From an uncultured Candidatus Saccharibacteria bacterium (GTDB lineage: Bacteria > Patescibacteriota > Minisyncoccia > Phycocordibacterales > CAYSCM01): 64,000 bases of DNA. The position numbers and the translations under genes are program-made. This document shows positions 2,616 through 61,071 of the stretch, one piece after another (position 1 is the first letter of the stretch; every line of letters starts with the position of its first letter). The notes under the pieces are model-generated. The model was not told the origin of the DNA. It ran no database searches and worked only from the letters and a program-made list of their open reading frames with translations. The stretch covers positions 384,001-448,000 of the forward strand of contig CAYSCM010000001.1 of assembly GCA_964429815.1 (NCBI GenBank), read 5' to 3'.

Positions 2616-2633
2616 CACCTCGCTCCCCTGATA

Positions 2634-2672
2634 CAACAACTGCCTGCGATCGCGGGCAGTTGTTGTATTTGT
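2634..2672 (+). terminator. Rho-independent terminator after nrdJ
   Basis: Perfect hairpin caacaactgcc...ggcagttgttg followed by tatttgt. Confidence 0.6.
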
Positions 2673-2694
2673 AAAAAGATGGTATAGTATTCCC

Positions 2695-3155
2695 CGTGCA
2701 CCGGATAATCGCGCACCCCAAAGGAATTTGAGGAGGTGAGGAAAGTCCGAACACAGCCGAGCACCTGTAAGGTCGTAGTGCCGCAGGGATGCACTATTGC
2801 TTTACAGGTGCTCGGAGCAGGTAGCGTCCTAAGCTTTCGCTCTGCGAAAGCCGGATCCGACACTCGCAAGAGTGTTCAGGAGGTAACGCCCGTCCACCGT
2901 AAGGTGCGAGATGCGAACAGAAACGTCGATGCCGAAAGGCTAGAGTCCCCTCGGGGATTGTCTCGTCGAGAGGCGAGGATGAAACGGCTAAACTCTTACT
3001 TCTGTGCAAGGCCGCGTCGAGCACCTTTAAGGTTGTATTGGAGCAAGAATCAATATTGCTTTAAAGGTGCTCGAAGTGCCGCTTGAACCGCACAGCGATG
3101 TGTGGTCCAGATAAATGATTATCGTCCGCCACTGGCGGATACAGAATTCGGCTTA
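2695..3155 (+). ncRNA. rnpB: RNase P RNA (bacterial type A-like, about 460 nt, with extra or duplicated hairpins)
   Basis: 5' gaggaaagtccgaacacagc matches the conserved GGAAAGUCCGGGC P4 strand, and 3' acagaattcggcttacag matches ACAGAACCCGGCUUA. The GG>AA / CC>TT change is compensatory. P1 candidate pairs gtgcacc (2696) with ggtgcac (3146). No ORF. A terminator hairpin follows. Confidence 0.75.
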
Positions 3156-3176
3156 CAGGTGCACGCACAAATGATG

Positions 3177-3206
3177 AAGGCCCGCGAAAGCGGGCCTTTG
3201 TCGTTT
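3177..3206 (+). terminator. Rho-independent terminator after rnpB
   Basis: aggcccgc-gaaa-gcgggcct hairpin followed by a T-rich tract. Confidence 0.55.
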
Positions 3207-3283
3207 AACCACAGGAATGCCTGTGGGGGCAGGAACCGTCGAGGTATACTTCCTGTATTACTTTTTAAGAGTTAGAGAGATTT

Positions 3284-5587
3284 ATGAGCACGTCGCGATT
3301 GCCCACCTACCTTCTTCTTATAGGACTCCTTCTTTCTCCCCTCTTTTTCATTCCGTCTGTCACCATACCCTTCGTTTTTGCCAAGGTGCATGTGCTGACC
3401 CTCCTTAGCTCTCTGGCGTTTCTTATCGCCGTCGTCGTCGCACTGCGGCGGCGGGCGGTATCGCTTACGTTTCATCCTGTCCTTCTCGCGCTCTGGACGG
3501 TCGTCGCCGCGTACCTCGTCTCAGCCCTCCTTACCAAAGCGCCGATGCTCTCGCTGGTGGGAATGCGCTTCGACGTGGATACCGTGGCATTCATGGCGCT
3601 TGCGGCGTTTTCAGCGACGCTCTGCGCTCACCTTTTCTCGGAGCGGCGGCACTTGTCGCTTCTCCTGCGGGGAGCCGCCATCGTCGCCGCGCTCGGCGGC
3701 CTTTTTGTGGGCGCGAGGCTCCTTTTCGGAGTTGGGTTTTTGGGCTTCGGGTTTTTCACCGATAAAACGAGCAATTTCTTCGGCAGTTGGAACGACCTTG
3801 CTCTTCTCTCCGGACTCTCAGCGATTCTTTGCCTCAATGCACTTCGCTCCGCGACGCTCGTCGGAGCGAAAAAAGTCCTGGTTATCGTGGGACTCGTCGC
3901 TTCGATCTTCTTCCTCGCTATCACCAACTACTTCACGGCGCTCCTCGTCGTCGCGGTAGTCTCGGCGGCCTTCTTCCTTCTCGAGATGCTCTCTTCGATA
4001 CGCGCACGCTCGACGGCGTCACTCTTCCACCTTTTTCCGATTTTCGCCCTCCTCACCGCGCTCGTGGCGGGCCTCTTCGCTTTTGAGAGCGGTATCGGCG
4101 GGTCCTTGGCGACCTCGGTCGGCATCTCCCAGCTCGAGGCGCGACCCTCCTGGGTCACCACGTTTGACATCGGCAAGGCGACCCTTAACGCTAACCCGCT
4201 CTTTGGCTCCGGACCAAACACGTTCGTGCGGGATTGGCTTCTCAATAAGCCCGCCGAGGTCAACACGACGGCGTTCTGGGCCGCCGACTTCATTCAAGGT
4301 GTCGGCACTATCCCAACCGGCTTTATCACGACCGGCATCGTGGGCACTGCTTTCTACGCAATATTCCTTCTCCTCCTCGTTCTTGCGAGCGTCCAATTCT
4401 TTGTTCGCTCCGGTCAGGCCTCCGGCGGAAGCTTCTACAGCACCACCTTCGCCCTTGCCGCTCTCTATCTCGTGCTCTTCACGTTCCTCTATACCCCCTC
4501 ACCGATACTCGTTCTCAGCGCGTACGCTTCCGTCGGACTCTTCATCGCCGCGCTCATCGCCGAAGGCTTCTTGATGAAGCGGCAAATCTCCCTTGCGATG
4601 CCGACGTGGGGGAGCTATCTCATGCAGCTTGCCATGGCGCTTGCGATAATCACGACCGTCGCCTATCTCGGCGAGAGCGGTATGCGGTTCATCGCTGCAC
4701 TGCAAGCCGGTCAGGCCTCCGCGGACATACAAGCGGGCGACGTGGTGAACGCAAAGCGTCATAGCGCCTCCGCTCTCTCCTTGGCGCACGTCGACGAGTA
4801 TGAGCGACTTGCGGCTCTCGCGAATCTTGCGGCGCTTCGTGACCTGGTCAACAAGAAAAATCCAACCGACGAGAACAAGGCGCAGGCGCAGCAAGAGTTG
4901 TCTGAGGCCGTTGCCCATGTTACGGCGGCCGTAAACGACAATAGCCAGAACTACCAAAACTGGCTCGCGCTCGCGCAGGTTTACATAACCGTGCTGCCTC
5001 TCCAGGTCCAAGGCGCCTACGAAAATGCCAAAACGGCATTGGGGAAGGCGATCGAGCTTGCTCCCAAAAACCCGGACCTCGAGCTTGCGTTCGCCCAGCT
5101 CGAGCTCGGCCAAAACAATACCGTCGAGGGACGAAAGCACCTCACCAACTCCCTCTCGCTCAAAGGAAACTACACCGCGGCGATTTACCTCCTGGCGCAG
5201 CTTGATATAGCCGAGGGCAAGTCTGATGAAGCACTCCAGGCGCTCGCGGTCGCCCAACAACTCATCCCCAACGAACCCTCCGTCTACTTCATGGCGGGCT
5301 ACCTTTTCTACGCGCGAAACGACGACAAAAACGCCATAGGAGCGCTCAAAGAGGCCGTCGCACTCAACAAGGACTACGCCAATGCGCACTACTTCCTCGG
5401 TCTTGCTCTCGCCCGTTCGGGTGACAGTGCCGGCGCCATTGCAGAATTCGAAGGGCTTGCGGCAGGTAACCCTGACAACGCCGATGTCGCGGCGATACTT
5501 AAGAATCTAAAAGCGGGGAAGCCGCCCTTCGCCGCGCAGACTCAGAGGCCGACCAAGAACTCGCCGCTTCCCATCAAGGGTGAATAA
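3284..5587 (+). CDS. Polytopic membrane protein, O-antigen-ligase-like (Wzy_C-type) with C-terminal TPR repeats
   Basis: 767 aa. About 10 predicted TM helices in the N-terminal 450 aa. C-terminal region has repeated TPR-like helices (NYQNWLALAQVYIT..., AIYLLAQLDIAEG..., ANAHYFLGLALARSGD). Confidence 0.5.
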   Translation: MSTSRLPTYLLLIGLLLSPLFFIPSVTIPFVFAKVHVLTLLSSLAFLIAVVVALRRRAVSLTFHPVLLALWTVVAAYLVSALLTKAPMLSLVGMRFDVDTVAFMALAAFSATLCAHLFSERRHLSLLLRGAAIVAALGGLFVGARLLFGVGFLGFGFFTDKTSNFFGSWNDLALLSGLSAILCLNALRSATLVGAKKVLVIVGLVASIFFLAITNYFTALLVVAVVSAAFFLLEMLSSIRARSTASLFHLFPIFALLTALVAGLFAFESGIGGSLATSVGISQLEARPSWVTTFDIGKATLNANPLFGSGPNTFVRDWLLNKPAEVNTTAFWAADFIQGVGTIPTGFITTGIVGTAFYAIFLLLLVLASVQFFVRSGQASGGSFYSTTFALAALYLVLFTFLYTPSPILVLSAYASVGLFIAALIAEGFLMKRQISLAMPTWGSYLMQLAMALAIITTVAYLGESGMRFIAALQAGQASADIQAGDVVNAKRHSASALSLAHVDEYERLAALANLAALRDLVNKKNPTDENKAQAQQELSEAVAHVTAAVNDNSQNYQNWLALAQVYITVLPLQVQGAYENAKTALGKAIELAPKNPDLELAFAQLELGQNNTVEGRKHLTNSLSLKGNYTAAIYLLAQLDIAEGKSDEALQALAVAQQLIPNEPSVYFMAGYLFYARNDDKNAIGALKEAVALNKDYANAHYFLGLALARSGDSAGAIAEFEGLAAGNPDNADVAAILKNLKAGKPPFAAQTQRPTKNSPLPIKGE

Positions 5588-5589
5588 GG

Positions 5590-7269
5590 ATGCCCCAGCG
5601 TATCTTCAATCTTTTTAACCGGGAAGTACGCGGCATACACCAAGCCGCGTACCTCCTCGGTATTTTCGCCATCATCTCTCAGCTTCTCGCGCTCCTGCGC
5701 GACCACCTCCTTGCCGGCGCTTTTGGCGCCGGGGCGACACTCGACCTCTACTACGCCTCGTTCCGACTCCCCGATCTTCTCTTTGCAGGCATCGCTTCGC
5801 TCGTCTCCGTCTACGTCCTTATTCCGTTCTTTTCTCAGAAAGTCGAAGGCGGCGGCGGGGAAGCACGCGCGTTCCTCTCGACCATGCTCACGGGCTATGT
5901 CGCTCTCATCGGCATCGCTTCCCTCATCGTGTTCTTTGCCGCGCCGTACCTCTTGCCCCGAGTGTTTCCCGGCTTCGCCACGCAATCGCACGAGCTCGTG
6001 TTTCTCACGAGACTCCTCCTATTGCAGCCGATACTTCTTGGTCTTTCTTCGCTCATCGGGACCATAACCCAGCACGATCGGAAATTTTTCCTGTACGCGT
6101 TTTCTCCCATTCTCTACAATGTCGGCATTATCCTGGGCATTGCGTTTCTCTACCCGCTCTGGGGCCTTCCTGGGCTCATTGTGGGCGTGATAGTTGGAGC
6201 TCTCATGCACGTGGGAATCCAGGTGCCCTACACGCTCTCGACCGGCTACTTTCCGGTCCTCACGAAAAAGGCTTCGTGGCGGGAGTTTCGTCAGGTCGTC
6301 ACGCTCTCGCTTCCGCGTACCATCGCACTTTCGGCGAACCAGGTAGCGCTTCTCGTCATTGCGACCCTGGCAGGCGGGATTACCGCAGGCTCCATCGCGG
6401 TTTTTAACCTCGCGCTCAACCTGCAATCGGTGCCGCTCTCCGTCATCGGCGTCTCCTATTCCGTCGCAGCTTTCCCGACACTCGCCAGGCTCTTCTCCTT
6501 AGGAGAGCGCGATGCCTTTTTTGCGCAAATCTCTGCCGCGTCGAGGCACATCATCTTCTGGTCTCTTCCAACACTCTCTCTCTTTATCGTGCTGCGCGCC
6601 CAGATCGTCCGCACCATCCTTGGCTCCGGCGCGTTCAACTGGAATGACACCCGCCTCACTGCCGCCGCAGTTGCCATTTTCGTCGTCTCTCTCTTGGCGC
6701 AGGGGCTGGTCCTTCTCATCGTGCGTGGCTACTACGCCGCCGGGCGTACTGCGGTGCCTCTTATCATCAATGTGGGCTCCGCGCTCCTCTCCATCGTCTT
6801 TTCCCTCTACTTTTTGTACTTGTTCCGTTCGTCTCCCGCGTTCGCCTCTTTCACCGAGTCGCTCCTGCGCGTTTCGGGAATCGAAGGGACAGCTGTTCTC
6901 ATGCTCCCCTTGGGGTACATGCTCGCCCAGATCGGGAACGCCGTGGCGCTCTTTCTTCTTTTTGAGCGGGACTTTCGACGCTTTGCCAGCGAGCTCCTCT
7001 CAGGGAGCCTCCAGAGCTTCTGCGCCGCTGTCGTTATGGGGCTTGTCGCCTACCTCCTCCTCAATATCTTCGATACCGTTTTTGACATAACCACGTTTGT
7101 CGGTATATTTTCCCAGGGACTATTCTCCGGACTTGGCGCTATCGTCGTGGGCGTTGTCGTGCTGTGGGTCCTTCGGAACCAGGAACTCTCCGAGATTGCC
7201 GGCTCGCTACGCTCACGCATATTCACCGCTCCCGCTACGGCTCCCGATGAGATAGAGCCTACCGTCTAG
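5590..7269 (+). CDS. murJ: Lipid II flippase MurJ/MviN
   Basis: 559 aa, polytopic. N-terminus IHQAAYLLGIFAIISQLLALLRDHLLAGAFGAGATLDLYYASFRLPDLLF is typical of the MurJ family. Confidence 0.8.
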   Translation: MPQRIFNLFNREVRGIHQAAYLLGIFAIISQLLALLRDHLLAGAFGAGATLDLYYASFRLPDLLFAGIASLVSVYVLIPFFSQKVEGGGGEARAFLSTMLTGYVALIGIASLIVFFAAPYLLPRVFPGFATQSHELVFLTRLLLLQPILLGLSSLIGTITQHDRKFFLYAFSPILYNVGIILGIAFLYPLWGLPGLIVGVIVGALMHVGIQVPYTLSTGYFPVLTKKASWREFRQVVTLSLPRTIALSANQVALLVIATLAGGITAGSIAVFNLALNLQSVPLSVIGVSYSVAAFPTLARLFSLGERDAFFAQISAASRHIIFWSLPTLSLFIVLRAQIVRTILGSGAFNWNDTRLTAAAVAIFVVSLLAQGLVLLIVRGYYAAGRTAVPLIINVGSALLSIVFSLYFLYLFRSSPAFASFTESLLRVSGIEGTAVLMLPLGYMLAQIGNAVALFLLFERDFRRFASELLSGSLQSFCAAVVMGLVAYLLLNIFDTVFDITTFVGIFSQGLFSGLGAIVVGVVVLWVLRNQELSEIAGSLRSRIFTAPATAPDEIEPTV

Positions 7270-40256: not shown

Positions 40257-41552
40257 ATGAAGACCTTTCAAACCGCCATTTTGCTTATTTTTGGGGCGCT
40301 CGCGCTCATCGGGGTGCTTGTCTTTGCGACCGTGAGCAACCAGAGCTCCGGCGGTATCGGAGCGGTTGCCGTTTGGGGGACGCTCCCGAAGGATTCCGTC
40401 GACTCGCTCCTCGCGCAAATAGAGACAAACCGTCATGACTTCGACCAGGTGCGCTACACTTACATCGACCCGGCGCTCTATGAGCAAAAGCTTCTTGAGG
40501 GGTTTGCCTCCGGCACAGGCCCCGATCTTTTCCTCGTACCGCAGGAGTCCCTTCTTGCACAAACGTCCCATATCGCTCCGATAGGTTATTCAACACTCTC
40601 GCAACGGGCGTTCAAGGACCGGTTCGTCCAGGAAGGGGAGCTCTACCTCAAGGACTCCGGCGCCCTGGCGCTTCCTCTTACGATCGACCCGCTAGTTCTC
40701 TATTGGAATCGGGACATGCTGGCGAATGGAGGCATCGCCAAACCGCCAAGCTTTTGGGATGAGCTCGTGACGCTCGCGCCGAAGCTCTCCGTGCGCGACA
40801 GCAAGGGGACCGTAACGCAATCGGCTATTGCACTTGGCGAGTACCGCAATATCACCAACGCAAAAGCCATTCTCTCCGCTCTTTTCATGCAGGCGGGGGA
40901 TTCTATCGTTTCTCGTGATGCGGACGGCAACCCCTACGCGTCGCTCGCGGCGGAAAATTCCTCGCTTACCTCCGCGGGACCCTCGGCGATTCGCTTCTAT
41001 ACGCAGTTCGCGAACCCCATCAACACCATCTATTCCTGGAACCGCGCGCTTCCCGAATCGCAAAAAGCGTTTTTGGCAGGGAGTCTGGCGTTTTATGTGG
41101 GGTTCGCGAGCGAAGCGGCAGGACTCCGCGCCCAAAATCCCAACCTAAACTTTGATGTCGCTCCATTGCCGCAAACGCGCGACATAAAAAATAAGCTCAC
41201 TTACGGCGCGATGCAGGCCATTTCGGTCCCCAAGACGACGCACAACCTCTCCGGCGCCACAGCGGTCGCGCTCGAGCTAGTGTCGGACGCCAACCTCGCA
41301 TATCTCGCCGACAAGCTCGGACTTCCGCCAGTGTCCCGCGCAGATCTTTCCTCACAGCCCCCCAGTGCCGCTCAGCAAGTGTTTTATGCGAGTGCGCTCA
41401 TAGCACGTGGATGGCTCGATCCGGCTCCGGAAAAAACGAATACTATCTTCCAGGATATGATCGAGGGGGTGACGAGCGGGAAGTTTGAAATTTCCGACGC
41501 ACTCTCTCGTGCATCCCTTGCGCTCGATGAGCTTTTACGAGGTAATCAATAG
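40257..41552 (+). CDS. Extracellular solute-binding protein (SBP family 1-like), membrane-anchored
   Basis: N-terminal TM/signal anchor, then a periplasmic-binding-protein-like pattern. Its stop abuts the start of the first pilin-like gene (tagtATG). Confidence 0.6.
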   Translation: MKTFQTAILLIFGALALIGVLVFATVSNQSSGGIGAVAVWGTLPKDSVDSLLAQIETNRHDFDQVRYTYIDPALYEQKLLEGFASGTGPDLFLVPQESLLAQTSHIAPIGYSTLSQRAFKDRFVQEGELYLKDSGALALPLTIDPLVLYWNRDMLANGGIAKPPSFWDELVTLAPKLSVRDSKGTVTQSAIALGEYRNITNAKAILSALFMQAGDSIVSRDADGNPYASLAAENSSLTSAGPSAIRFYTQFANPINTIYSWNRALPESQKAFLAGSLAFYVGFASEAAGLRAQNPNLNFDVAPLPQTRDIKNKLTYGAMQAISVPKTTHNLSGATAVALELVSDANLAYLADKLGLPPVSRADLSSQPPSAAQQVFYASALIARGWLDPAPEKTNTIFQDMIEGVTSGKFEISDALSRASLALDELLRGNQ

Positions 41553-41553
41553 T

Positions 41554-41964
41554 ATGTTTCGCAAAAACCGTATTGCCTTATCCGCTCTTGCACTACTTTT
41601 AGCACCGGCCCTTACACTTGCGCAGCAAGGCAGTTTTTCGGGAAATGGCGTTCAATTTTCATTCCGAAACCCCCTTGGTCCAAATGTGAATGATCTCGGC
41701 ACCTTCCTTAAGCTCCTCCTTAATTTTGTGACTGAGCTAGCGATCCCCATAATTGTCCTCATGCTCATCTACACCGGCTTTAAATTCGTCGCGGCACAGG
41801 GGAATTCAGACAAACTCGCGGAAGCGCGGCGCATACTCTTGTGGACTCTCATCGGCGCGGGCATTATTCTCGGGGCCAACGCGATACTCCTTGCCATTCA
41901 AGGCACGGTGACCCAAATACGGGGGGCAACGGGGCTTGTCGATATCTTCTCGCACCTCACGTAG
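41554..41964 (+). CDS. TrbC/VirB2-like pilin-family protein (paralog 1)
   Basis: Signal peptide MFRKNRIALSALALLLAPALTLA. TM1 (IPIIVLMLIYTGFKFV), loop GNSDKLAEARRIL, TM2 (LWTLIGAGIILGANAILLAI). Confidence 0.55.
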   Translation: MFRKNRIALSALALLLAPALTLAQQGSFSGNGVQFSFRNPLGPNVNDLGTFLKLLLNFVTELAIPIIVLMLIYTGFKFVAAQGNSDKLAEARRILLWTLIGAGIILGANAILLAIQGTVTQIRGATGLVDIFSHLT

Positions 41965-41967
41965 CCC

Positions 41968-42306
41968 ATGAAGCGACCACTTCGAACGCTTGTCCTCACA
42001 CTGCCACTCCTCGCGCCTTCCGTAGCGCTCGCGGCGGCGCGGCCGCAAAATTTCGCCGACTTCGTCCACCACCTCACGAGGCTCCTTAACCTTACGATCC
42101 CCATCGCATTCGCTATCGCACTTCTTGCGTTCTTCTGGGGGCTAGTGAAATTCATATACCTCTCCTCCGAGAGCGATTCGGCCCGTGAAGATGCCAAAAA
42201 CATCATGCTCTACGGAGTGCTCGCGCTTTTCGTCATGCTCTCGGTGTGGGGCTTCGTGCGGATTCTCCAGGAGACTATCTTTGGTACCTCGGGCATTCTT
42301 CCGTAG
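41968..42306 (+). CDS. TrbC/VirB2-like pilin-family protein (paralog 2)
   Basis: Signal peptide, then TM1 IPIAFAIALLAFFWGLVKFIY, loop SESDSAREDAKNIM, TM2 LYGVLALFVMLSVWGFVRIL. Confidence 0.55.
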   Translation: MKRPLRTLVLTLPLLAPSVALAAARPQNFADFVHHLTRLLNLTIPIAFAIALLAFFWGLVKFIYLSSESDSAREDAKNIMLYGVLALFVMLSVWGFVRILQETIFGTSGILP

Positions 42307-42405
42307 AGAGCTTGTCCACATTGACCCTTTTACGCTCCGAGAGCGAGGGCGTACTATAAGCTCGTACAACAATTAGCAAACCTTAGCCCATAAATCGACA
42401 TTTTC

Positions 42406-42759
42406 ATGCGTAAATACGCTTTACTCGCAACCGCCTATCTTCTCCCCGTCGTTGTATTCGCGCAGGGGAGCGGCGTTGAAGGGCTTCTCAACAAGCTCTC
42501 CCGCTGGATAAACATCGCGACCCCGATAGTTTTTGCGCTTGCACTCCTAGCGTTTTTCTGGGGCCTCGCGGTCTATGTTTTTAACACCGGTGATGAAGAA
42601 AAGCGCAAGCAGGGCAAGGACATCATGATCTGGGGCGTCATCGCGCTTTTCGTCATGGTCTCGGTCTTCGGCATCGTGCGCATTATTCGCGAGACTTTCG
42701 GCATTAGCGCCAACGAAACCGCTCATATCCCGACCGTTCAAGGGACGAACGCTCAATAG
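42406..42759 (+). CDS. TrbC/VirB2-like pilin-family protein (paralog 3)
   Basis: Signal peptide MRKYALLATAYLLPVVVFAQG. TM1 PIVFALALLAFFWGLAVYVF, loop GDEEKRKQGKDIM, TM2 IWGVIALFVMVSVFGIVRII. Confidence 0.55.
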   Translation: MRKYALLATAYLLPVVVFAQGSGVEGLLNKLSRWINIATPIVFALALLAFFWGLAVYVFNTGDEEKRKQGKDIMIWGVIALFVMVSVFGIVRIIRETFGISANETAHIPTVQGTNAQ

Positions 42760-42768
42760 CGTTGGCCA

Positions 42769-43032
42769 ATGACCGCGGCCACCACTTTCGTCAGGGCGAT
42801 AAACGACTACATCATCAACCCTATCATCGGGCTCCTCTTTGCTGCGGCCATGGTCCTTTTTATCTGGGGCGGCGCGCAAATGATTTTCTACCCTGGCACC
42901 GAAGATAAGCGCGAGGACGGCAAGCGTCACCTCTTTTGGGGCATCATCGGGATGTTCATCATGGTCTCGGTCTACGGACTCCTCAATCTCATCACGAGCA
43001 CATTCGGCCTCCCGCACGTCGTCAGCCACTAA
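42769..43032 (+). CDS. TrbC/VirB2-like pilin-family protein (paralog 4, no obvious cleavable leader)
   Basis: TM1 IIGLLFAAAMVLFIWGGAQMIF, loop GTEDKREDGKRHLF, TM2 WGIIGMFIMVSVYGLLNLI. Confidence 0.5.
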   Translation: MTAATTFVRAINDYIINPIIGLLFAAAMVLFIWGGAQMIFYPGTEDKREDGKRHLFWGIIGMFIMVSVYGLLNLITSTFGLPHVVSH

Positions 43033-43080: not shown

Positions 43081-44109
43081 TTAGAGCTTGTTGTACCAAT
43101 ACTTGAGTGGAACCGGTTCACCCACGATCGAGCGGAACCGAATGCACTTAGTGGGCTTCATTCCTTCGTTGAAGAAGCCCTGATACACCTTGATGGTACC
43201 GTCGTGGAAGTATGCTGCGGCGACTATCTTCAAAATGCCCGGATTCTCCGTCCGGTACATCAAGTTGTAGCCGTCAGGAATGGGCACGCAGCGTGACCAC
43301 TCGGTCGGTACCAGGAAGGTTGAACCTTCAGCCGTAAAGGCAGGGTGGACACGTGGTTGGACCCGCGTTGGTGCCGCCTTGGCCTCCTGGAAGTAGTGGG
43401 GGAACATCTTCGGTGCGGTGTAGATCGCAATTGCGATTGCGAGCAGTGCCGCGAATCCGCCGGCGAAATAGTGACCGACTTCCTGCTTCGTCTTTCCCTT
43501 GCGCGACCCGAGGATGACCACCAACGCAACGGCCGCCACGAATGCGTAGTAAAACGCGAGGTAGGGCTTGAAGTTGTTGATCCACCAGAATTTAAGCTCG
43601 GGGTCGCCCTTCCAGTAGGCAAAAAAGTAGAGGATCGCTGGGATGAAGATCCCCATGAAGGCGATCCATACCATTGTGCCACCCGTGAGGTTGCCCTTAA
43701 TGAACTTGCCGATCTTCGGCAGGGTCCAAAGAAGGATGAACGCAACAAACAGGATGATGCCCGCTTGCATCAGGAAGTCGACGAGTGGCTCACCGGTGAG
43801 GGTGAGTAGGTCGAGCTCCTCCATAGTGTTGTACGTCCAGAGCGAAAGCACGGGGTAGTAGGCGTAGACGAGCAGGCCCACGATCGTCGCAAAGATGATC
43901 GCGAGGATTACGATGCGACGCCGTTGCTTTTTCGGCGCAGTGGTTGTGGTTTGGGTCGTCGTGGTCTGCTGAGCCTGCTGCGATTGTGCGGGCGGTTGAG
44001 CGGAAGCTTGCGCTTGCCCACCCTTGACGGTAGCGATGGTGCCCGAGGCGACCGCCCCGGTCATTTTCATTGCCGCCGTGCTCGCTGAGTAGCGTTGTAC
44101 GGCCATCAC
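43081..44109 (-). CDS. Polytopic membrane protein co-transcribed with the SPFH protein (possible NfeD-like partner)
   Basis: 342 aa. Gln/Thr-rich N-terminus, then at least 5 TM helices, and a C-terminal soluble beta-rich domain. Overlaps the SPFH gene by 4 nt. Confidence 0.4.
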   Translation of the reverse strand: MMAVQRYSASTAAMKMTGAVASGTIATVKGGQAQASAQPPAQSQQAQQTTTTQTTTTAPKKQRRRIVILAIIFATIVGLLVYAYYPVLSLWTYNTMEELDLLTLTGEPLVDFLMQAGIILFVAFILLWTLPKIGKFIKGNLTGGTMVWIAFMGIFIPAILYFFAYWKGDPELKFWWINNFKPYLAFYYAFVAAVALVVILGSRKGKTKQEVGHYFAGGFAALLAIAIAIYTAPKMFPHYFQEAKAAPTRVQPRVHPAFTAEGSTFLVPTEWSRCVPIPDGYNLMYRTENPGILKIVAAAYFHDGTIKVYQGFFNEGMKPTKCIRFRSIVGEPVPLKYWYNKL

Positions 44110-45299
44110 TTATCTCCTTCTTTTGGCTTGAGACCTTGGGGGACGGCTTTGATCACCGCCCCGAGCGTGGCCGCGGGGGATGCGAGACCGTCGGCGCCGA
44201 CGGCGATGAAGGTATCGACTTCCTTAGCCACTTGGACTGCAGTGTCGCGTGCGAAGATGAGTTCGAGCGCACGCGGCTTGTCGCCGCCTTGCGCCGCGAG
44301 CTTTTCGATCGCTTGTGCGTCTCCTTCCGCCTCGTACGAGGTAGCATCTCCCTTCGCCCGACCAGCAATACGGGTGGCCTCACCCTCGGCAAGCGCCTGA
44401 GCGGGCTTCTGTATCGACGTATTGAGCGCGTGAGAGAAATTGAAGAGCTTGATGTTGGCGGTATCGACTTCGACGCCGCCCTTGCCAAGTTTCTCTTCAA
44501 TGAGTGTTCGCAGGTCTACGTTGATAGTCGACGTGCCCCGAAGGGCCTCGGCTGCCGTCCTCGACGGAAGTGTTTCGCTCAGCCCCGTCACGATTGTGTC
44601 TTCAGCTTGCTTCATGGCGGCCGCAAGGTCGCCATTGTACAGGACGAAGAACTCTCGCAAATTTCCTTTTTCGGGTCTGATCTTAAGGATCGCAGCGACC
44701 TCCGCAGTGATGCGGCGGTCGAGCGGATCCTGACCATCCTTGCCGGCGAACGTGATACGCACCGGCGGGTAGTACCCCTCAGCGACGGTGTCTTTGTCGC
44801 CACGATCAACGAGTTCCGGCTCGCTCGGGATCTCTTTTTGCAGCAGCTCGAGATCGGTGATCCGGAGCATGCTGAGAAAGAGGGGAGCATAAACGGGCCC
44901 GTTGGGAAGTTCGCAAACGACCCAGCCGAAGATGCTGAGCACTGCTCCTTCGTTGATATCTACCTCCTCGAAGCTCTTCCACGTGTAGAGTGTGAAGAGC
45001 ACAAGAAGGATCGGGATCACGGGAATGTTGAGCTGGCCGAGCTTGATTGAACTTGCCCCGAGGTTGGAGTAAACGACCAGCAAGGCAAAACTAAGAAGGA
45101 GGATGTTGGCGAAGAGTGCAGCAAGGTGCCAGACGAACCAATTTCTGGTCAAGCGCCCCATCACCGAAGCCTTGTGCCGTTCCTCGTCGGAACCGCCTGA
45201 GGCGGGACCTGCAGGGGGCGTTGGTGGGGTGGGAGGGGCTGGAGGTGTTGGAGTCCCAGCGCCGTTTGGCGGCTGGGTTGGCGTTGCTGTCTGTTGCAT
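44106..45299 (-). CDS. SPFH/Band-7 (stomatin/prohibitin-like) domain protein
   Basis: Pro-rich N-terminus, then a TM, then a band-7-like core and a long Ala/Glu-rich coiled-coil tail. Confidence 0.55.
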   Translation of the reverse strand: MQQTATPTQPPNGAGTPTPPAPPTPPTPPAGPASGGSDEERHKASVMGRLTRNWFVWHLAALFANILLLSFALLVVYSNLGASSIKLGQLNIPVIPILLVLFTLYTWKSFEEVDINEGAVLSIFGWVVCELPNGPVYAPLFLSMLRITDLELLQKEIPSEPELVDRGDKDTVAEGYYPPVRITFAGKDGQDPLDRRITAEVAAILKIRPEKGNLREFFVLYNGDLAAAMKQAEDTIVTGLSETLPSRTAAEALRGTSTINVDLRTLIEEKLGKGGVEVDTANIKLFNFSHALNTSIQKPAQALAEGEATRIAGRAKGDATSYEAEGDAQAIEKLAAQGGDKPRALELIFARDTAVQVAKEVDTFIAVGADGLASPAATLGAVIKAVPQGLKPKEGDK

Positions 45300-55664: not shown

Positions 55665-56156
55665 CTAAAGTGGTACAGCTTCGTGAGCGATGTTCTCCAT
55701 GAAGTTTGAATCGCGGTGGGGGAGTAGACATTGGAGTGTCGACAGATTCTGCCTCCAGTTTGGAGGAAAGCAGAATATATCGAGGACTCCACAGTAGTGA
55801 GCGCTCAGTTTGTAAATGAGGTCATCGGCCGTGGGGCCAAAGGTATCACGAAGAAGTTCTCTCCAGGCCCCGAAGTCTTCATGTTGGAAGGTGGGATCTT
55901 GGTTGTCGTCGTAGTCATCGAGATCGCTGATTTCAAACGAGGTCCATCGCGTCTCGACCCCAGCTGCTATGTGAGCAGCTTCCTGGCGTTTTGCGACAAA
56001 AAAATGGGCAGCGATAAAATCTGGGACGGTCAGGATGATGTCAATATCGCCACCCCTTCCTTCGCGCGCGATGCTACCGAACAACTCTACCGATTGCACG
56101 TATGGACAACTGCGCAGTACCTCGGCCACCTTTTTTGCGTCCGCAAGTGTAGGCAT
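55665..56156 (-). CDS. Nucleotidyltransferase-domain protein (Pol-beta/MNT-like)
   Basis: GSIAREGRGGDIDI motif (GS...D.D). No HEPN partner is visible nearby. Confidence 0.55.
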   Translation of the reverse strand: MPTLADAKKVAEVLRSCPYVQSVELFGSIAREGRGGDIDIILTVPDFIAAHFFVAKRQEAAHIAAGVETRWTSFEISDLDDYDDNQDPTFQHEDFGAWRELLRDTFGPTADDLIYKLSAHYCGVLDIFCFPPNWRQNLSTLQCLLPHRDSNFMENIAHEAVPL

Positions 56157-56273: not shown

Positions 56274-56357
56274 GCGTCGGTGGCGGAGTGGTCAATCGCA
56301 CCTGACTGTAAATCAGGCGGCTTTATGCCTACGGGGGTTCGAATCCCTCCCGGCGCA
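56274..56357 (+). tRNA. tRNA-Tyr (anticodon GTA), class II
   Basis: gcgtcgg-tg-gcgg-agtggtcaa-tcgc-a-cctga-ctGTAaa-tcagg, variable arm cggctttatgcctac, ggggg-ttcgaat-ccctc-ccggcgc-a. One U-G pair in the acceptor. Confidence 0.75.
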
Positions 56358-56489
56358 CTACGTGACAAGTACTCTAAATAAGAGTACTGTTAAGAGCAGA
56401 GTACCTGTAGCGCGACGCTGCAGGTGCGTTCCTAGGGCAAGCGTGATGCTTGTCTAACAATACGGCGCGATGCCGTAAGGAGTAGTACC

Positions 56490-56915
56490 ATGAGACGTTC
56501 GAATGTTGACGCAATTTATGCGGAAAATCCCTTTCTGTCGAAAGTGATCGCGAGAGTCAAGGTTCCAGATGCGCAGGTGAAGCGCTGGAACGAAGATTTC
56601 CTCGGCAGCACACCCGACACCTACCCTGATTCAGGAACTGAAAAGATTTACCTGATCGACGGACAAGGCAACAAGATCGTACGCGTGGGAAGTCTTTCTG
56701 ATCGAATCACTGGATTCTTTGGACTCCACCAGAACAGCGAAACGGTCGGACAGGCCTTAGCGCGTATCGGCGACAAAACTCGCCAGGTGCAGTACGCGGT
56801 CGGAGAGTGGAACGGGAGGGTCATTTTGTGGAAACTCCCGAACGGCTACAACAACGCAGCCGATTGGTTGAGGTCGCGGATTGCGGAAGCTCGGGCTGAG
56901 CTGAAAGCATCCTGA
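56490..56915 (+). CDS. Hypothetical protein
   Basis: 141-aa ORF followed by two terminator hairpins (about 56938-56966 and 57025-57055). Confidence 0.4.
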   Translation: MRRSNVDAIYAENPFLSKVIARVKVPDAQVKRWNEDFLGSTPDTYPDSGTEKIYLIDGQGNKIVRVGSLSDRITGFFGLHQNSETVGQALARIGDKTRQVQYAVGEWNGRVILWKLPNGYNNAADWLRSRIAEARAELKAS

Positions 56916-57073
56916 TCAACCTACCAGAATAATTGTTTGACCCCAGGCAATCCGGCCTGGGGTTTTATGTTTTCTGATCTAAAACCATTCCGATATCGTT
57001 CCATACGGCGCACCAAAACAAAAACCCACAGCGAAAGGCTGTGGGTTTTTGTTTTGGCTCTATACTTAACTCA

Positions 57074-58366
57074 ATGAGCAAAAAGCTCGCCTTCTTTATA
57101 TTTATTGTGTCTGTCGTTGCCGTGTTGGTCGCGACAGCAGTGCAGACATCCGCGGCTCCCATCGTGCCGCAGGTATCCGCCCAGCCCGGCTCTGTTGAAG
57201 GCGGTCCGCTTCGCGCCTGCGACCTCCTCACCCTCTACAACAACATCCTCCGGTTCGGGATCTATGCTGCGACGGTTATTGCGACCCTCATGCTTACCTA
57301 CGCGGGCTTCCTCTACATCACCTCCTCGGCCAAGATAGGAAACATTGAAAAGGCACACGGGATTTTTACCAATGTCATCATCGGCTTCATCATTGTCCTC
57401 GTCGCGTGGCTTATCGTCTCGACTCTTTTGCGCGTGTTTACCGCGCAATCGAACTACAATCCGTTCGCCGCGATACAGTGCAATGTTGAAACACCGACGA
57501 CGACGCGCAACGTCACCCCTGCCGGATTTGAAACACAGTCCTATTCTGACTATCCCACCGGTCTTCCCGCCGGAGAGGTTCCGGTGTGCCTCACCGCCGA
57601 TAGCGACAGCAATTGCACCACCTACGCTTCCATCGGGCTGCAAGACTCGACCCTTCTTGAGTGCCAGGATCCCGGAGCAACCGGCGAGCAGTACTGTTGC
57701 TCGATGACTAACGCCGACGGCTCATGTAAGCTAGCGGTCACGGTCGGGCCAAATGGCCAACCTTCCTACAACAACGATGTGGGTGAGAATCTCTACGTAA
57801 ATCCGAATGTGGGGCTCACTGGCGTTGCCCCGACAGAAGGTATTTGCTCCCCGGATGCGCTCCAGAGCGTGTGGGGAGATAACGCCGCAACCGCTGGGTG
57901 CATATGCGCTTCAGAAAGTGGTGGGGGGCTCTACAACGGCATTACGGGCCCGCGCACGGACGTCATGCTCATCGATCAACAGCAGCCAGATGGTTTTTAT
58001 CCAGGTTTTTCGGCATGCCCATTCCAGCTCAACGTCACGAGCCTTCCGGCACAATATGGTGGATGTGGCGCGTATACCTGCAATACCAACACACAGGCGT
58101 GTATGATAAACGGTGTATTAACGCCACCCAATCCCACGAAATGCGATACAAATGTATCAGCCTATGAGCAAACCCTTGGATACAAGGAAGGGGCTCTGAG
58201 TCGAAACGGAGGCTATTGCCATGTGATAACCAATCAACCCGCCTTTAACTCCTGCGTGCAAAACCTTCTTACACCCGGGGGATGTGCCAAGGGAGCTCAA
58301 TATCTTCTTGCCAATGGCGGCTGGGCGCACTGGAGTACGAGCGCTAAAAAATGCCGAGCTATATGA
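57074..58366 (+). CDS. Pilin-like (TrbC/VirB2-type N-terminal module) protein with large Cys-rich extracellular C-terminal domain
   Basis: Signal peptide, then a two-TM module LLTLYNNILRFGIYAATVIATLMLTYAGFLYITSSAKIGNIEKAHGIFTNVIIGFIIVLVAWLIVSTLL. This matches the modules of 58920-59813 and the four small paralogs at 41.5-43 kb. The C-terminal ~300 aa contain more than 20 Cys. Confidence 0.55.
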   Translation: MSKKLAFFIFIVSVVAVLVATAVQTSAAPIVPQVSAQPGSVEGGPLRACDLLTLYNNILRFGIYAATVIATLMLTYAGFLYITSSAKIGNIEKAHGIFTNVIIGFIIVLVAWLIVSTLLRVFTAQSNYNPFAAIQCNVETPTTTRNVTPAGFETQSYSDYPTGLPAGEVPVCLTADSDSNCTTYASIGLQDSTLLECQDPGATGEQYCCSMTNADGSCKLAVTVGPNGQPSYNNDVGENLYVNPNVGLTGVAPTEGICSPDALQSVWGDNAATAGCICASESGGGLYNGITGPRTDVMLIDQQQPDGFYPGFSACPFQLNVTSLPAQYGGCGAYTCNTNTQACMINGVLTPPNPTKCDTNVSAYEQTLGYKEGALSRNGGYCHVITNQPAFNSCVQNLLTPGGCAKGAQYLLANGGWAHWSTSAKKCRAI

Positions 58367-58923
58367 GAAAACTATTACTCACCATCGTGCTCCTTCTTGT
58401 AGCGGTTGTCATCGGTGGTGGAATCTACGTATTCCTCGTTTCGCGCAGCACCCAGCCGGCAAGCGTACAAAACGAAACGGGAACTTCGCCTTTTGGCAGC
58501 GGCGCAGGAGCTATTCCTTCTGGCGGCAGCGGGCAAGGAAATACCACGTCCAGCCAAACCTCGGAGCAATTCATCGTCCTGGGAGCTGACGGTAGCATGA
58601 TTTCGGTAGCTGACTTCCGCTCAGAGCCGGGAGTGCAAGAGCTTTCTGACGGGAGCTATCGGCTCGGTCCATTCACCGGAAGCTCGACGTATCAAATTCT
58701 CTACTATGCCGCCGACAAGAGCTTCACGGTGACTCTTCTCGAGGAGCCACTGGGAGCCACGAGAGAGAGCGCAGAGCAGTACCTCATGAATGCTCTCCAA
58801 ATCGGCAAACCCCAGATGTGCAGATTGCGCTATGGTGTCTACGTGCCCATCAAGATCAGCCAGTTCTATGCGGCCACCAATCTCGGATTTAGTTTCTGTC
58901 CTCGCGCGATAAAACTACCATGA
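58363..58923 (+). CDS. Hypothetical membrane-anchored protein
   Basis: Start at MRKLLLTIVLLLVAVVIGGGIYVF (TM), then a Ser/Gly-rich linker and a small globular domain. Confidence 0.4.
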   Translation: MRKLLLTIVLLLVAVVIGGGIYVFLVSRSTQPASVQNETGTSPFGSGAGAIPSGGSGQGNTTSSQTSEQFIVLGADGSMISVADFRSEPGVQELSDGSYRLGPFTGSSTYQILYYAADKSFTVTLLEEPLGATRESAEQYLMNALQIGKPQMCRLRYGVYVPIKISQFYAATNLGFSFCPRAIKLP

Positions 58924-59813
58924 TACGCACCGCCGCAATCGCGCTCATTCTCTTGTGCGTCTTTGTCGTGACACCCTTTGCGCACGCGCAGAGTTTTGCT
59001 GGTCCCATAGTCCCCGATTGTGGTGGTGGCCCGTGCCAAGCCTGCCACCTCGTAAAGCTTGCGGACAACCTCCTGCGTTTCGGCATCTATCTGGCGACCG
59101 TCATTGCGACTCTAATCCTTGTCTATGCGGGTATTCTCTACATCACCTCAGCGAGCAACCCCAGCAATATTTCGAAAGCACACAGTTTATTTGGGAATGT
59201 CATTCTCGGTTTTATCATCATACTCATCGCTTGGATCGTCGTTGCTACGCTGCTGCGGGTTTTTCTCGGACAGGGCAAAGCTCTTCCGTGGGAGCAGCTC
59301 ACCTGTAACGTCACGGCGAATCCTGGCCCGACACCCTCGACCACGCCTCCAGGACTAACCGTAGCACCCCTTGCAGCTCCGCCAGGGGAAGGACAGCTCA
59401 CTGATCCGCAGGCGCGCCTTTCAATTGCCGCCTATAATGAGTCTCATCCTGACGCGCAGGTGTTAACTTGTGGTGATACAGCTTCCTGCCCGGCAATTCG
59501 CGACCGCGTCCTGTACGGCGGTATTGATAACGGCCTTCTCCAAAATGTCCTTGATACTACCTCTGCGGCCAATAGGGGGAACACCATTGTTACCTCCGCG
59601 GCAAATGAGCGTACTTCAGCTTCCAATCACCCAAGCGGCAATGCAATTGATATATACGGCACAAGCGCTTTCAATGCCTATGTTCAAAGCTTTCCGGCGG
59701 TCCCAGGTCTTTCAAACACATACCAGGTCGGGAATTATCGATACTGGTGGGAGCCATCAGGCACGGCTAATTCAACAGGGGACCATTGGCATATCTCAAA
59801 GACCGGACGTTGA
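58920..59813 (+). CDS. Pilin-like (TrbC/VirB2-type module) protein fused to a LAS/M15-family zinc peptidase-like domain
   Basis: N-terminal signal peptide plus two-TM module (LRFGIYLATVIATLILVYAGILYITSASNPSNISKAHSLFGNVILGFIIILIAWIVVATLL). C-terminal SNHPSGNAIDIYG ... GDHWHISK resembles the SxHxxGxAxD ... HxH zinc-binding signature of D-Ala-D-Ala peptidase-like (LAS) cell-wall hydrolases. Confidence 0.5.
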   Translation: MIRTAAIALILLCVFVVTPFAHAQSFAGPIVPDCGGGPCQACHLVKLADNLLRFGIYLATVIATLILVYAGILYITSASNPSNISKAHSLFGNVILGFIIILIAWIVVATLLRVFLGQGKALPWEQLTCNVTANPGPTPSTTPPGLTVAPLAAPPGEGQLTDPQARLSIAAYNESHPDAQVLTCGDTASCPAIRDRVLYGGIDNGLLQNVLDTTSAANRGNTIVTSAANERTSASNHPSGNAIDIYGTSAFNAYVQSFPAVPGLSNTYQVGNYRYWWEPSGTANSTGDHWHISKTGR

Positions 59814-59873
59814 CGCCTTCCTCGCGGTCTTGTATATTCTCCTTCACAGGGCAAGGCCCTTATTTTAATTTTC

Positions 59874-60098: not shown

Positions 60099-60170
60099 GG
60101 GCCTATAGTTTAATTGGTAAAACAGCGGTCTCCAAAACCGCCATTCCCCGTTCAAGTCGGGGTGGGCCCG
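60099..60170 (+). tRNA. tRNA-Trp (anticodon CCA)
   Basis: gggccta-ta-gtttaattggtaaaac-a-gcggt-ctCCAaa-accgc-catt-ccccg-ttcaagt-cgggg-tgggccc-g. Confidence 0.8.
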
Positions 60171-61071
60171 CCTGGAATTTATACGAGAGCGCTTTCTTCG
60201 CGGACGAAAACCAACGTATGCCGTTGTCACGTTTCCACCACGTCATCTGTCGACGCGAGAACTGCCAAATGGCAGCCTCAAGCCGCGTGAGCATCTCCTC
60301 TTTGGATAGTTTCCCCTCAAGGTAGTCGGCGAGATAGCGATACTCAAGTCCAAGCTCACGCATGCGCTTCAAGCGGAGCCCCCTTCGTCGTAGGCGCTTC
60401 GCCTCAGCGACCATTCCCTCTCGTATACGGGCATGAAGACGTTTCGCAATGTTGGCTCGGAGTTGCGAGTCTTTTGGCCGTATCCCGATTGTTACTGCCT
60501 CGTAGCGTGGTTTCGGGAGCTCTGCGGTTTTTTCTGCTGCGAGTGCGACCTCGATGGCGCGAATGAGACGCACGGGATTTTGCTTGTCGATAGTGAGATA
60601 GCGACGCGGGGCGAGCTCTTTAAGGAGTGTTTTGAGTTCTGGGAGCGTCTTCTTTCTTAAATGATGTCTGAGAGCGGCGTCTGGCCGGACATTGGCAAGC
60701 TTTGTCTTACCGAGTGCGGCATCGATGTAAAACGCCGAGCCGCCGACCATGATGGGCAGTTTACCGCGCCGCGCTATATCCTCGATAGCGGCGCGGGCAG
60801 CGATAGCGAAATCATACGCAGTGAAGACCCGCTTAGGGTCAGCGATGTCGAGGAGGTGATGGCGGACACCTTTCATCTCACGTTTCGTAATTTTGCCCGT
60901 GCCAATCGTGAGACCGCGATATACCTGTCGAGAATCCGCGGAAATTATCTCGCCGTTAAGTTTTTTTGCCAGTCGCACACCCAGGCCGCTTTTCCCAGAG
61001 GCTGTGGGGCCGACTATAACGAGCACTTTTGTTCTTACGGACCTGTTTTTGTATACTTCTTTCGTACTCAT
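60103..61071 (-). CDS. miaA: tRNA dimethylallyltransferase
   Basis: P-loop VGPTASGKSGLG, DSRQVYRGLTIGTGK. The last ~22 codons are antisense to tRNA-Trp, so the annotated C-terminus may be an ORF-extension artefact. Confidence 0.8.
   Translation of the reverse strand: MSTKEVYKNRSVRTKVLVIVGPTASGKSGLGVRLAKKLNGEIISADSRQVYRGLTIGTGKITKREMKGVRHHLLDIADPKRVFTAYDFAIAARAAIEDIARRGKLPIMVGGSAFYIDAALGKTKLANVRPDAALRHHLRKKTLPELKTLLKELAPRRYLTIDKQNPVRLIRAIEVALAAEKTAELPKPRYEAVTIGIRPKDSQLRANIAKRLHARIREGMVAEAKRLRRRGLRLKRMRELGLEYRYLADYLEGKLSKEEMLTRLEAAIWQFSRRQMTWWKRDNGIRWFSSAKKALSYKFQAGPPRLERGMAVLETAVLPIKL

Follow-up and report, generated by a model that had tools for sequence, protein, structure and literature searches.

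Two pilin-type modules fused to predicted cell-wall hydrolase domains in a patescibacterial genome

Patescibacteria possess a Gram-positive-type type IV secretion system (T4SS) that is essential for epibiotic growth, together with arrays of VirB2-like pilins that are unusual for single-membrane bacteria (PMC12102498, PMC10633639, PMC12857230). What this essential T4SS and the pilin arrays do in these bacteria has yet to be settled (PMC11665869, PMC12857230). The T4SSs of Gram-positive bacteria require an anchored hydrolase combining a glycosidase with a peptidase, and a survey found that a recognisable VirB1 hydrolase is missing from most Patescibacteria genomes (PMC12102498). Here we describe a locus in a stretch of 64,000 nucleotides (hereafter the window) from an uncultured Candidatus Saccharibacteria bacterium (assembly GCA_964429815.1, contig CAYSCM010000001.1, positions 384,001 to 448,000). 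It encodes two proteins, P1 (430 amino acids, aa) and P2 (297 aa), in which an N-terminal pilin-type module is followed by a predicted glycosidase domain and a predicted zinc-peptidase domain, respectively. These fusions suggest where the missing wall-opening activity may be found.

The N-terminal regions of P1 and P2 are 49-53% identical across approximately 156 aa, and the hydropathy segments (1-32, ~62-83 and 91-126 in P1; 1-28, 50-79 and 84-119 in P2) indicated that both proteins have a signal peptide and, after it, two hydrophobic helices, as a preliminary description made from the sequence alone had proposed. Between the helices of the module lies a short, positively charged polar loop that holds K, K and H. 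The module of P1 scored 31.0 bits against the family PF18895 (T4SS_pilin), whose gathering cut-off is 26.6 bits, and the pilin modules of relatives scored 27-45 bits. About 15 kb away, the window also contains an array of four small VirB2-like pilin genes, all four of which pass the PF18895 cut-off, and one of which passes that of TrbC/VirB2 as well. Because the pairwise identity between the P1/P2 module and these small pilins is low (14-25%), homology was tested by profile-profile comparison; hhalign aligned 95 columns with a probability of 96.4% and an E value of 1.3e-9. The earlier claim of kinship with the paralogs at 41.5-43 kb therefore held, and the module is not a generic signal anchor unrelated to them. 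The low identity sets the P1/P2 modules apart as a separate subfamily. This subfamily is marked by two Cys residues, one conserved and preceding helix 1, the other invariant and following helix 2; both are predicted to be extracytoplasmic, and a disulfide between them may staple the ends of the hairpin. Together, these comparisons provide strong support for the N-terminal module as a VirB2/TrbC-type "T4SS pilin" homologous to the small pilins.

For the C-terminal domain of P2, the preliminary description had pointed to a resemblance to the zinc site of LAS/M15-type peptidases, and the motif letters that it quoted are exact (SNHPSGNAID at residues 235-244 and DHWH at 288-291). The combination of H-x6-D and H-x-H, with a Glu ahead of H-x-H, is the signature of Hedgehog (Hh)/DD-peptidases (PMC6027127). 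P2 alone gave no Pfam match to peptidase families, no NCBIfam match and no PDB match by sequence, and a word-index protein search with the C-terminal domain and with full-length P2 returned just P2 itself and the unfused pilin P0002. An exhaustive HMMER scan of 1.8 billion representatives recovered five true homologues (P0004, P0006, P0008, P0009 and P0011). In the alignment of the six proteins, T-S, H237, G, A, D244, E278, G, H289, W, H291 and S are invariant. A profile search of a 5.8-billion-protein database then added three short bridging proteins (P0012, P0013 and P0014; E values from 6e-4 to 7e-3), in which H-x6-D and H-x-H are also kept. The invariant Glu (E278) sits 10 residues before H289 in P2 and 3 residues before H-x-H in P0011; we infer that it is equivalent to Shh E177, which lies at an end where the Hedgehog profile alignment is unreliable.

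The links from this family to known peptidases emerged from profiles. The six-member profile matched the PDB weakly (E values of 0.2-0.6), hitting the Streptomyces albus zinc DD-peptidase (1lbu) and Hedgehog N-domains through the S.H..G.A.D motif, besides three unrelated chance matches. Pfam scans with single family members gave sub-threshold matches chiefly to VanY, Peptidase_M15_4, Peptidase_M15_3, HH_signal and Extensin-like_C, which we take to be LAS-type families, and a few scattered single matches to unrelated families. Among the bridging proteins, P0013 exceeded the HH_signal cut-off (25.8 vs. 22.1), and P0014, which has the same GNHWHVS ending and matches a PHROG endolysin family, fell just under that of Peptidase_M15_3 (22.4 vs. 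23.2). When the bridging proteins were added, the profile matched more than 20 Hedgehog N-domain structures in the PDB, with E values from 1.5e-5 to 7e-4, and the segment "TS..ND..H...S.HysGnAiDi" fell on the Shh zinc ligands H141 and D148. The profile search that had been suggested for this domain gave nothing with P2 alone and reached Hedgehog N-domains with the bridged family profile. An AlphaFold2 model of the P2 domain, built from the six-sequence alignment (pLDDT 84.8, pTM 0.83), showed the element order helix, TS strand, D strand, helix, Glu-bearing hairpin and HWH strand, which is the order found for Shh in the bridged-profile alignment. A Foldseek search of the PDB with this model gave nothing significant; the best match in BFVD was a phage protein annotated as Hedgehog-like (E value 0.045, probability 0.90, TM 0.40), so that the fold searches are weakly compatible with a LAS-type assignment. 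On the evidence of the family-wide zinc-site signature and the profile links to Hedgehog and M15 proteins, we consider it very likely that the C-terminal domain of P2 is a divergent LAS/Hh-DD-peptidase whose predicted active-site signature is intact. Current Pfam models miss this family, which would be a divergent subfamily of the Hedgehog/DD-peptidases.

The C-terminal part of P1 is rich in cysteine, if slightly less so than the more than 20 Cys counted previously: the protein has 20 in total, 19 of them within the C-terminal 307 aa. A PDB sequence search with the C-terminal domain gave nothing or chance matches, P1 gave nothing in PHROGs or NCBIfam, and a pattern scan of genome and metagenome contigs for P1 or its C-terminal domain revealed no relatives. 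A single-sequence AlphaFold2 prediction of the C-terminal 307 aa was unreliable (pLDDT 33); of the two fusions for which structure prediction had been proposed, P2 thus yielded a usable domain model with weak fold matches, and P1 did not. An orthologue of P1 was reached only through the pilin-module alignment, on the 162-kb metagenome contig L003. The two proteins are 50% identical overall, with a variable spacer and 57% identity over the last ~190 residues. The orthologue matches PF18896 (SLT_3, "Lysozyme like domain"; cut-off 27 bits) with 30.3 bits as an isolated domain and 27.0 bits at full length. This match consists of two stretches with a Cys-rich insertion between them, and the first stretch holds CICASESGGG, which is the same in P1, and GLFQIN, which is CPFQLN in P1 (FQLN at aa 317-320), such that ESGGG and FQ(I/L)N are conserved in both proteins. 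Because the 57%-identical domain of the orthologue matches SLT_3, if only at about the cut-off, the P1 domain is read as probably lysozyme-like, and its Cys-rich region is probably a disulfide-stabilised lysozyme-like or lytic-transglycosylase-like domain. A close relationship to the classical SLT domain was considered and rejected, the hhalign comparison with the SLT domain of the related locus L008 (see below) being insignificant.

The ORFs and the public gene calls agree on the boundaries of P1 and P2 given in the preliminary description (Table 1), and a protein identical to P2 is present in public data. That account had treated the two genes as neighbours and left unmentioned a third gene between them, which we call Pmid (186 aa; from the public gene calls). 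ATGA stop/start overlaps join P1 to Pmid and Pmid to P2, and on this basis P1-Pmid-P2 is read as a single translationally coupled three-gene unit. The unit has a terminator-like hairpin on its upstream side (56939-56964) and another on its downstream side (59848-59860). Pmid is membrane-anchored according to hydropathy, and its conserved C-terminal domain of approximately 100 aa has two Cys. It has no match in Pfam or NCBIfam, and a PHROGs search with it found nothing. Its orthologue in L003 (5152-5742) marks the one lineage in which the gene is conserved, and it is missing at the related loci L008, L010, L002 and L005. Pmid may serve P1 as an inhibitor, as an immunity protein or as a partner in assembly.

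Table 1. Features of the P1-Pmid-P2 locus and of the small pilin array (window coordinates)
Feature	Coordinates	Strand	Remarks
P1	57074..58366	+	Signal peptide, VirB2-like pilin hairpin, variable Cys-rich spacer, C-terminal domain probably lysozyme-like
P1 pilin module	57230..57427 (aa 53-118 by Pfam)	+	PF18895; helices ~aa 57-83 and 97-122; Cys49, Cys136
P1 C-terminal domain (aa 236-430)	57779..58363	+	Probably lysozyme-like (SLT_3)
Candidate catalytic Glu281 in CICASESGGG	57914-57916	+	Identical in the L003 orthologue
Pmid	58363..58923	+	N-terminal membrane anchor, Gly/Ser-rich linker, conserved ~100-aa domain
P2	58920..59813	+	Signal peptide, VirB2-like pilin hairpin, Pro/Thr-rich linker, predicted LAS-type zinc-peptidase domain
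P2 pilin module	59079..59246 (aa 54-109 by Pfam)	+	PF18895 below cut-off; Cys42 and Cys129 flank the hairpin
P2 C-terminal domain (aa 159-297)	59394..59810	+	Predicted Hedgehog/DD-peptidase (LAS) type
SNHPSGNAID (aa 235-244)	59622..59651	+	H237 and D244 predicted zinc ligands (H-x6-D); aligned to Shh
E278 to D288-H289-W-H291	59751..59792	+	E278 candidate catalytic base; H291 predicted third zinc ligand (H-x-H)
Four small VirB2-like pilin genes (138, 112, 117 and 87 aa)	41548..43032	+	All above the PF18895 cut-off

The P1-Pmid-P2 locus is flanked by clpB and miaA, and its nearest named relative is in a Candidatus Kaiserbacteria genome. The clpB-miaA position is common to the window and to L002, L003, L005, L008, L010 and L011. 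On L008, the contig of P0009, a ClpB fragment is followed by a pilin-LAS gene (333 aa) and a pilin + SLT gene (405 aa, PF01464 at 37.3 bits, 21 Cys), with miaA further on. On L010, the contig of P0004, the order is IF-2, DUF4446, aminotransferase, ClpB, pilin-LAS and a pilin joined to a Cys-rich, SLT-like domain (20 Cys), with miaA later. Exactly identical DNA is shared by the adjacent pilin-LAS and pilin-SLT genes of the same contig (gene pairs at L008 2061-4257 and L010 5734-7848), over 446 bp in L008 and 461 bp in L010; the identical stretches cover the pilin module and part of the linker. Such identity indicates recent duplication or gene conversion of the module, or else suggests a cassette-like swap of enzyme heads on a constant carrier. 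From the gene orders, the pair of pilin + peptidase and pilin + glycosidase recurs at one conserved clpB-miaA locus in Kaiserbacteria-like genomes.

Other relatives vary this arrangement. In L003 and L004, ClpB is followed by the orthologues of P1 and Pmid and then by a pilin fused to an unrelated C-terminal domain. In L003, this third gene (5742-6893) stands at the position of P2 and combines a pilin module (PF18895, 34.1 bits) with a 250-aa C-terminal domain that resembles neither the LAS family nor any Pfam family; both this domain and the C-terminal domain of L007 were tested as LAS candidates and found unsupported. In L005, a gene adjoining miaA encodes a pilin fused to a domain homologous to that of P2 (hhalign 94%, E value 1e-7), with H-W-D replacing H-x-H. 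The Kaiserbacteria contig L002 has the order ClpB, a 713-aa protein (3684-5825) and miaA. This protein contains repeated surface Ig-like domains, a Gly/Ser/Thr linker of ~130 aa and a pilin module in its middle (35.8 bits), and its C-terminal end, again with H-W-D instead of H-x-H, is weakly LAS-like (E value 8e-4), a match that we regard as suggestive. Because domains lie on either side of its module, the hairpin appears able to carry cargo on both ends. In L011, the unfused pilin P0002, of the P1/P2 subfamily, occupies the same locus; the clpB-miaA interval there also holds a gene (850-6843, minus strand) for a 1997-aa protein (2143 aa in L012) that matches no Pfam family.

The window is otherwise rich in housekeeping genes (ribonucleotide reductase, MurJ, LepA, GyrA, IF-2, ClpB, L33, miaA and peroxiredoxin), and the GC content is 55%. 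Immediately upstream of P1, at 57018-57052, a long inverted repeat that is GC-rich and bordered by A-runs and T-runs (aaaacaaaaacccacagcg...cgctgtgggtttttgtttt) resembles a bidirectional terminator. The interval from clpB to the operon holds two small genes, at 55665-56156 (minus strand) and 56490-56915 (plus strand), with a tRNA-Tyr gene between them at 56274-56358; one of the two has a weak nucleotidyltransferase resemblance (NTP_transf_2/Polbeta, E value ~2e-3), and the other is without a match. Downstream, a tRNA-Trp gene (60099-60172, plus strand) overlaps the 3' end of the listed miaA ORF (60103-61071, minus strand), and the listed TTG start (60893) of the peroxiredoxin ORF overlaps miaA, while the public gene calls begin ~190 nt later. 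Neither is a genuine gene overlap; each arises from the way the ORFs were listed. The small pilin array sits between a solute-binding-protein gene (40257-41552, plus strand) and a gene for a 342-aa polytopic membrane protein (43081-44109, minus strand) without a family match, after which comes an SPFH/Band-7 gene (44106-45299). Two of the small pilins weakly match the NCBIfam "Mbov_0395 family pilin-like conjugal transfer protein" of Mycoplasma integrative and conjugative elements, and no VirB4 gene was seen near the array.

The identity of the pilin module is strongly supported, that of the peptidase is good and that of the glycosidase is moderate, and P1 and P2 are probably both peptidoglycan hydrolases. 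The domain calls of the preliminary description are upheld, and extended by the lysozyme-like reading of P1; its idea of a wall-breaching device at a pilus tip is a hypothesis. Our proposed explanation is as follows. P1 and P2 would be exported through a cleavable signal peptide, and each would be inserted into the membrane by its VirB2/TrbC-type pilin hairpin with both termini outside the cell, whereupon a flexible linker would carry the extracytoplasmic enzyme domain into the wall. P2 would cleave the peptides of peptidoglycan, with H237, D244 and H291 as predicted zinc ligands and E278 as the base, and P1 would cleave the glycan strands through its SLT_3-type, disulfide-rich domain with Glu281 as the candidate catalytic residue. 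The pilin module may bring the enzymes to the assembly site of the VirB2-like pilins and possibly into the filament, with the pilin termini outward. In solved VirB2-type pili, both pilin termini face outward, and a functional link between VirB1 and VirB2 is established because VirB1* of Agrobacterium promotes T-pilus formation. By analogy, we lean towards regarding P1 and P2 as a split, pilin-borne counterpart of the two-domain wall hydrolases of Gram-positive T4SSs. The elaborate, conserved and sometimes DNA-identical carrier module argues for more than an anchoring role, and surface display would be in keeping with the variability of the heads, the length of the linkers and the Ig-like domains added in L002.

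Several observations weigh against this explanation. First, VirB4, VirB6 and VirD4 are absent from the window and from the flanks of the related loci, where the neighbours are housekeeping genes. Second, the module of P2, although 53% identical to that of P1, scored 24.1 bits against PF18895, slightly under the cut-off, and to our knowledge, no PF18895 protein has been experimentally shown to form a pilus. Third, the peptidase family is very rare, with about six proteins in the 1.8 billion representatives, and P2 has "NERT" where the other family members carry a His aligned with Shh H134/H135. Fourth, the C-terminal domain of P1 has no direct Pfam match, even at an E value of 10. The rarity of the family is among the main limits of this work, in which all of the evidence is computational: beyond the domain assignments, we infer that the proteins are active enzymes, how they lie in the membrane, that they work with a T4SS or pilus, and which wall they would cut (the cell's own or that of a host).

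If the hairpin were only a membrane anchor, P1 and P2 could be housekeeping autolysins that remodel the cell's own peptidoglycan for growth or division and have no link to a T4SS or pilus. The locus lies amid core genes (IF-2, ClpB, L33, miaA and peroxiredoxin) and is syntenic across genomes, no T4SS gene was seen nearby, and the organism makes peptidoglycan, as the MurJ gene in the window indicates. This explanation stays in play because the genes around the locus are of the housekeeping kind and none belongs to a T4SS, and the data are fitted as well by membrane-anchored hydrolases acting on the cell's own wall as by a pilus role. However, a single transmembrane helix would suffice as an anchor, yet the whole VirB2-type homologous module has been kept, and it is identical in DNA between the two enzymes in L008 and L010. 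In addition, enzyme domains have been swapped or lost among close relatives (the third gene of L003; P0002), which would be unusual for essential autolysins. We therefore consider plain autolysins rather unlikely, but a serious contender.

Under another scenario, which we consider improbable, the proteins are pilus-displayed attack enzymes akin to polymorphic effectors, in which the module would polymerise with the small pilins, the hydrolases would decorate or cap the VirB2-type filament and digest the host wall, and Pmid would be the immunity protein or inhibitor. Its appeal lies in the modular layout, in which the N-terminal carrier is conserved, the Pro/Thr/Gly linkers are long and the C-terminal domains vary, and to which L002 adds surface Ig-like domains on the N-terminal side, and in the small membrane-anchored gene directly after P1. 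Moreover, Patescibacteria are epibionts for whose lifestyle the T4SS and pilins are essential (PMC10633639, PMC12857230), and modular type IV pilins offer a precedent (PMC8179133). However, the packing of bulky fusions in a VirB2-type filament is without evidence, Pmid is missing in four of the related loci (as noted above), no comparable gene follows P2, and T4SS genes are not linked to the locus. A bolder version, which we offer as a doubtful speculation, is that VirB2-type pili are modular and that a T4SS filament carrying a muramidase and a zinc peptidase would be an enzymatic drill through the host wall for the uptake or delivery of molecules, with identical carriers and swappable heads adapting the drill to different host walls.

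It is very unlikely that the C-terminal part of P2 serves for binding without catalysis, whether as a Hedgehog-like pseudo-peptidase or as a generic alpha/beta sandwich like the ATP-binding domain of histidine kinases. Every family member keeps the three zinc ligands and the Glu, the sequence-profile matches are chiefly to LAS families, an extracellular ATP-binding domain would make no sense, and no kinase ATP-binding motifs were seen by eye; the histidine-kinase-like fold was rejected on these grounds. Also rejected, as having almost no chance of being correct, was a prophage-derived holin-endolysin or signal-anchored endolysin fusion, for although two membrane helices with a wall hydrolase resemble a lysis cassette and P0014 matches phage endolysins, there are no phage genes around the locus, its chromosomal position is conserved, P1, P2 and P0009 have no PHROGs matches, tblastn against phages found nothing, and the proteins have both a cleavable signal peptide and a module that matches PF18895.

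If P1 and P2 are indeed a pilin-borne pair of hydrolases, the fusion ties wall hydrolysis directly to a pilin and could explain how the wall, the cell's own or that of a host, is opened for a secretion pilus. The two enzyme domains and the one candidate inhibitor are small, expressible targets.

The component domains of P1 and P2 are of known kinds, namely the PF18895 pilin, the LAS/Hh-DD-peptidase and SLT_3, and their fusion is the part that we did not find described. As in the PF18895 arrays of other Patescibacteria (PMC12102498, PMC10633639, PMC12857230), a signal peptide precedes a two-helix hairpin of the same Pfam family, in the same phylum. However, the published pilins are small, unfused and often encoded beside virB4, whereas P1 and P2 carry enzyme domains of 170-300 aa, have the subfamily Cys pair and lie at a clpB-miaA locus without T4SS genes. 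With SLT_3 (PF18896) and SLT (PF01464), the glycosidase candidates share the E-S motif with the catalytic Glu and the G-L-F/M-Q-I motif, and the L003 orthologue and the L008 partner pass the SLT_3 and SLT cut-offs, respectively; P1 itself falls under detection, a Cys-rich insertion interrupts its domain, and GLFQIN has become CPFQLN. Searches of the literature on PF18896/SLT_3 and on VirB2-hydrolase fusions turned up no description of this architecture, the Pfam/InterPro architecture tables lying outside the search, and the consecutive accessions PF18895 and PF18896 hint that the combination of T4SS_pilin and SLT_3 may be known to curators.

The Hh/DD-peptidases, which include the Streptomyces albus zinc DD-peptidase, VanX/VanY, MepA, the phage T5 endolysin and bacterial Hedgehog-like proteins (PMC6027127), share with P2 the H-x6-D and H-x-H motifs, a Glu before H-x-H, the T-S strand ahead of the motif and, as modelled for P2, the order of secondary-structure elements. 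They differ in that neither P2 nor its five homologues reach a Pfam cut-off, that P2 has insertions (~9 residues between the Glu and H-x-H, and a Cys-bridged segment at aa 184-190), and that the L005 and L002 relatives have H-W-D for H-x-H. In overall design, the modular type IV pilins PilB and PilC of Streptococcus sanguinis (PMC8179133) are similar, with a small pilin carrier, a linker and an effector module, but their filaments are of an unrelated family, whose pilins have a class III signal peptide and a single helix at the N-terminus; the papers found describe no VirB2-type equivalent. The closest functional parallels are PrgK of pCF10, TraG of pIP501 and CwlT of ICEBs1 (VirB1 in Gram-negatives), in which, as predicted for P1 and P2, membrane-anchored extracytoplasmic activities cleave both glycan and peptide. 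Unlike these proteins, P1 and P2 divide the two activities between two polypeptides, use a pilin-module anchor in place of a plain transmembrane helix and lie outside a T4SS cluster, and the predicted peptidase of P2 is a LAS/Hedgehog-type zinc enzyme rather than CHAP or NlpC/P60. The Pfam scan found no CHAP or NlpC/P60 domain in P1 or P2 and no classical SLT in P1, and there are no T4SS neighbours. The resemblance of P1 and P2 to PrgK, TraG and CwlT, drawn by analogy, is thus one of predicted function and not of family membership.

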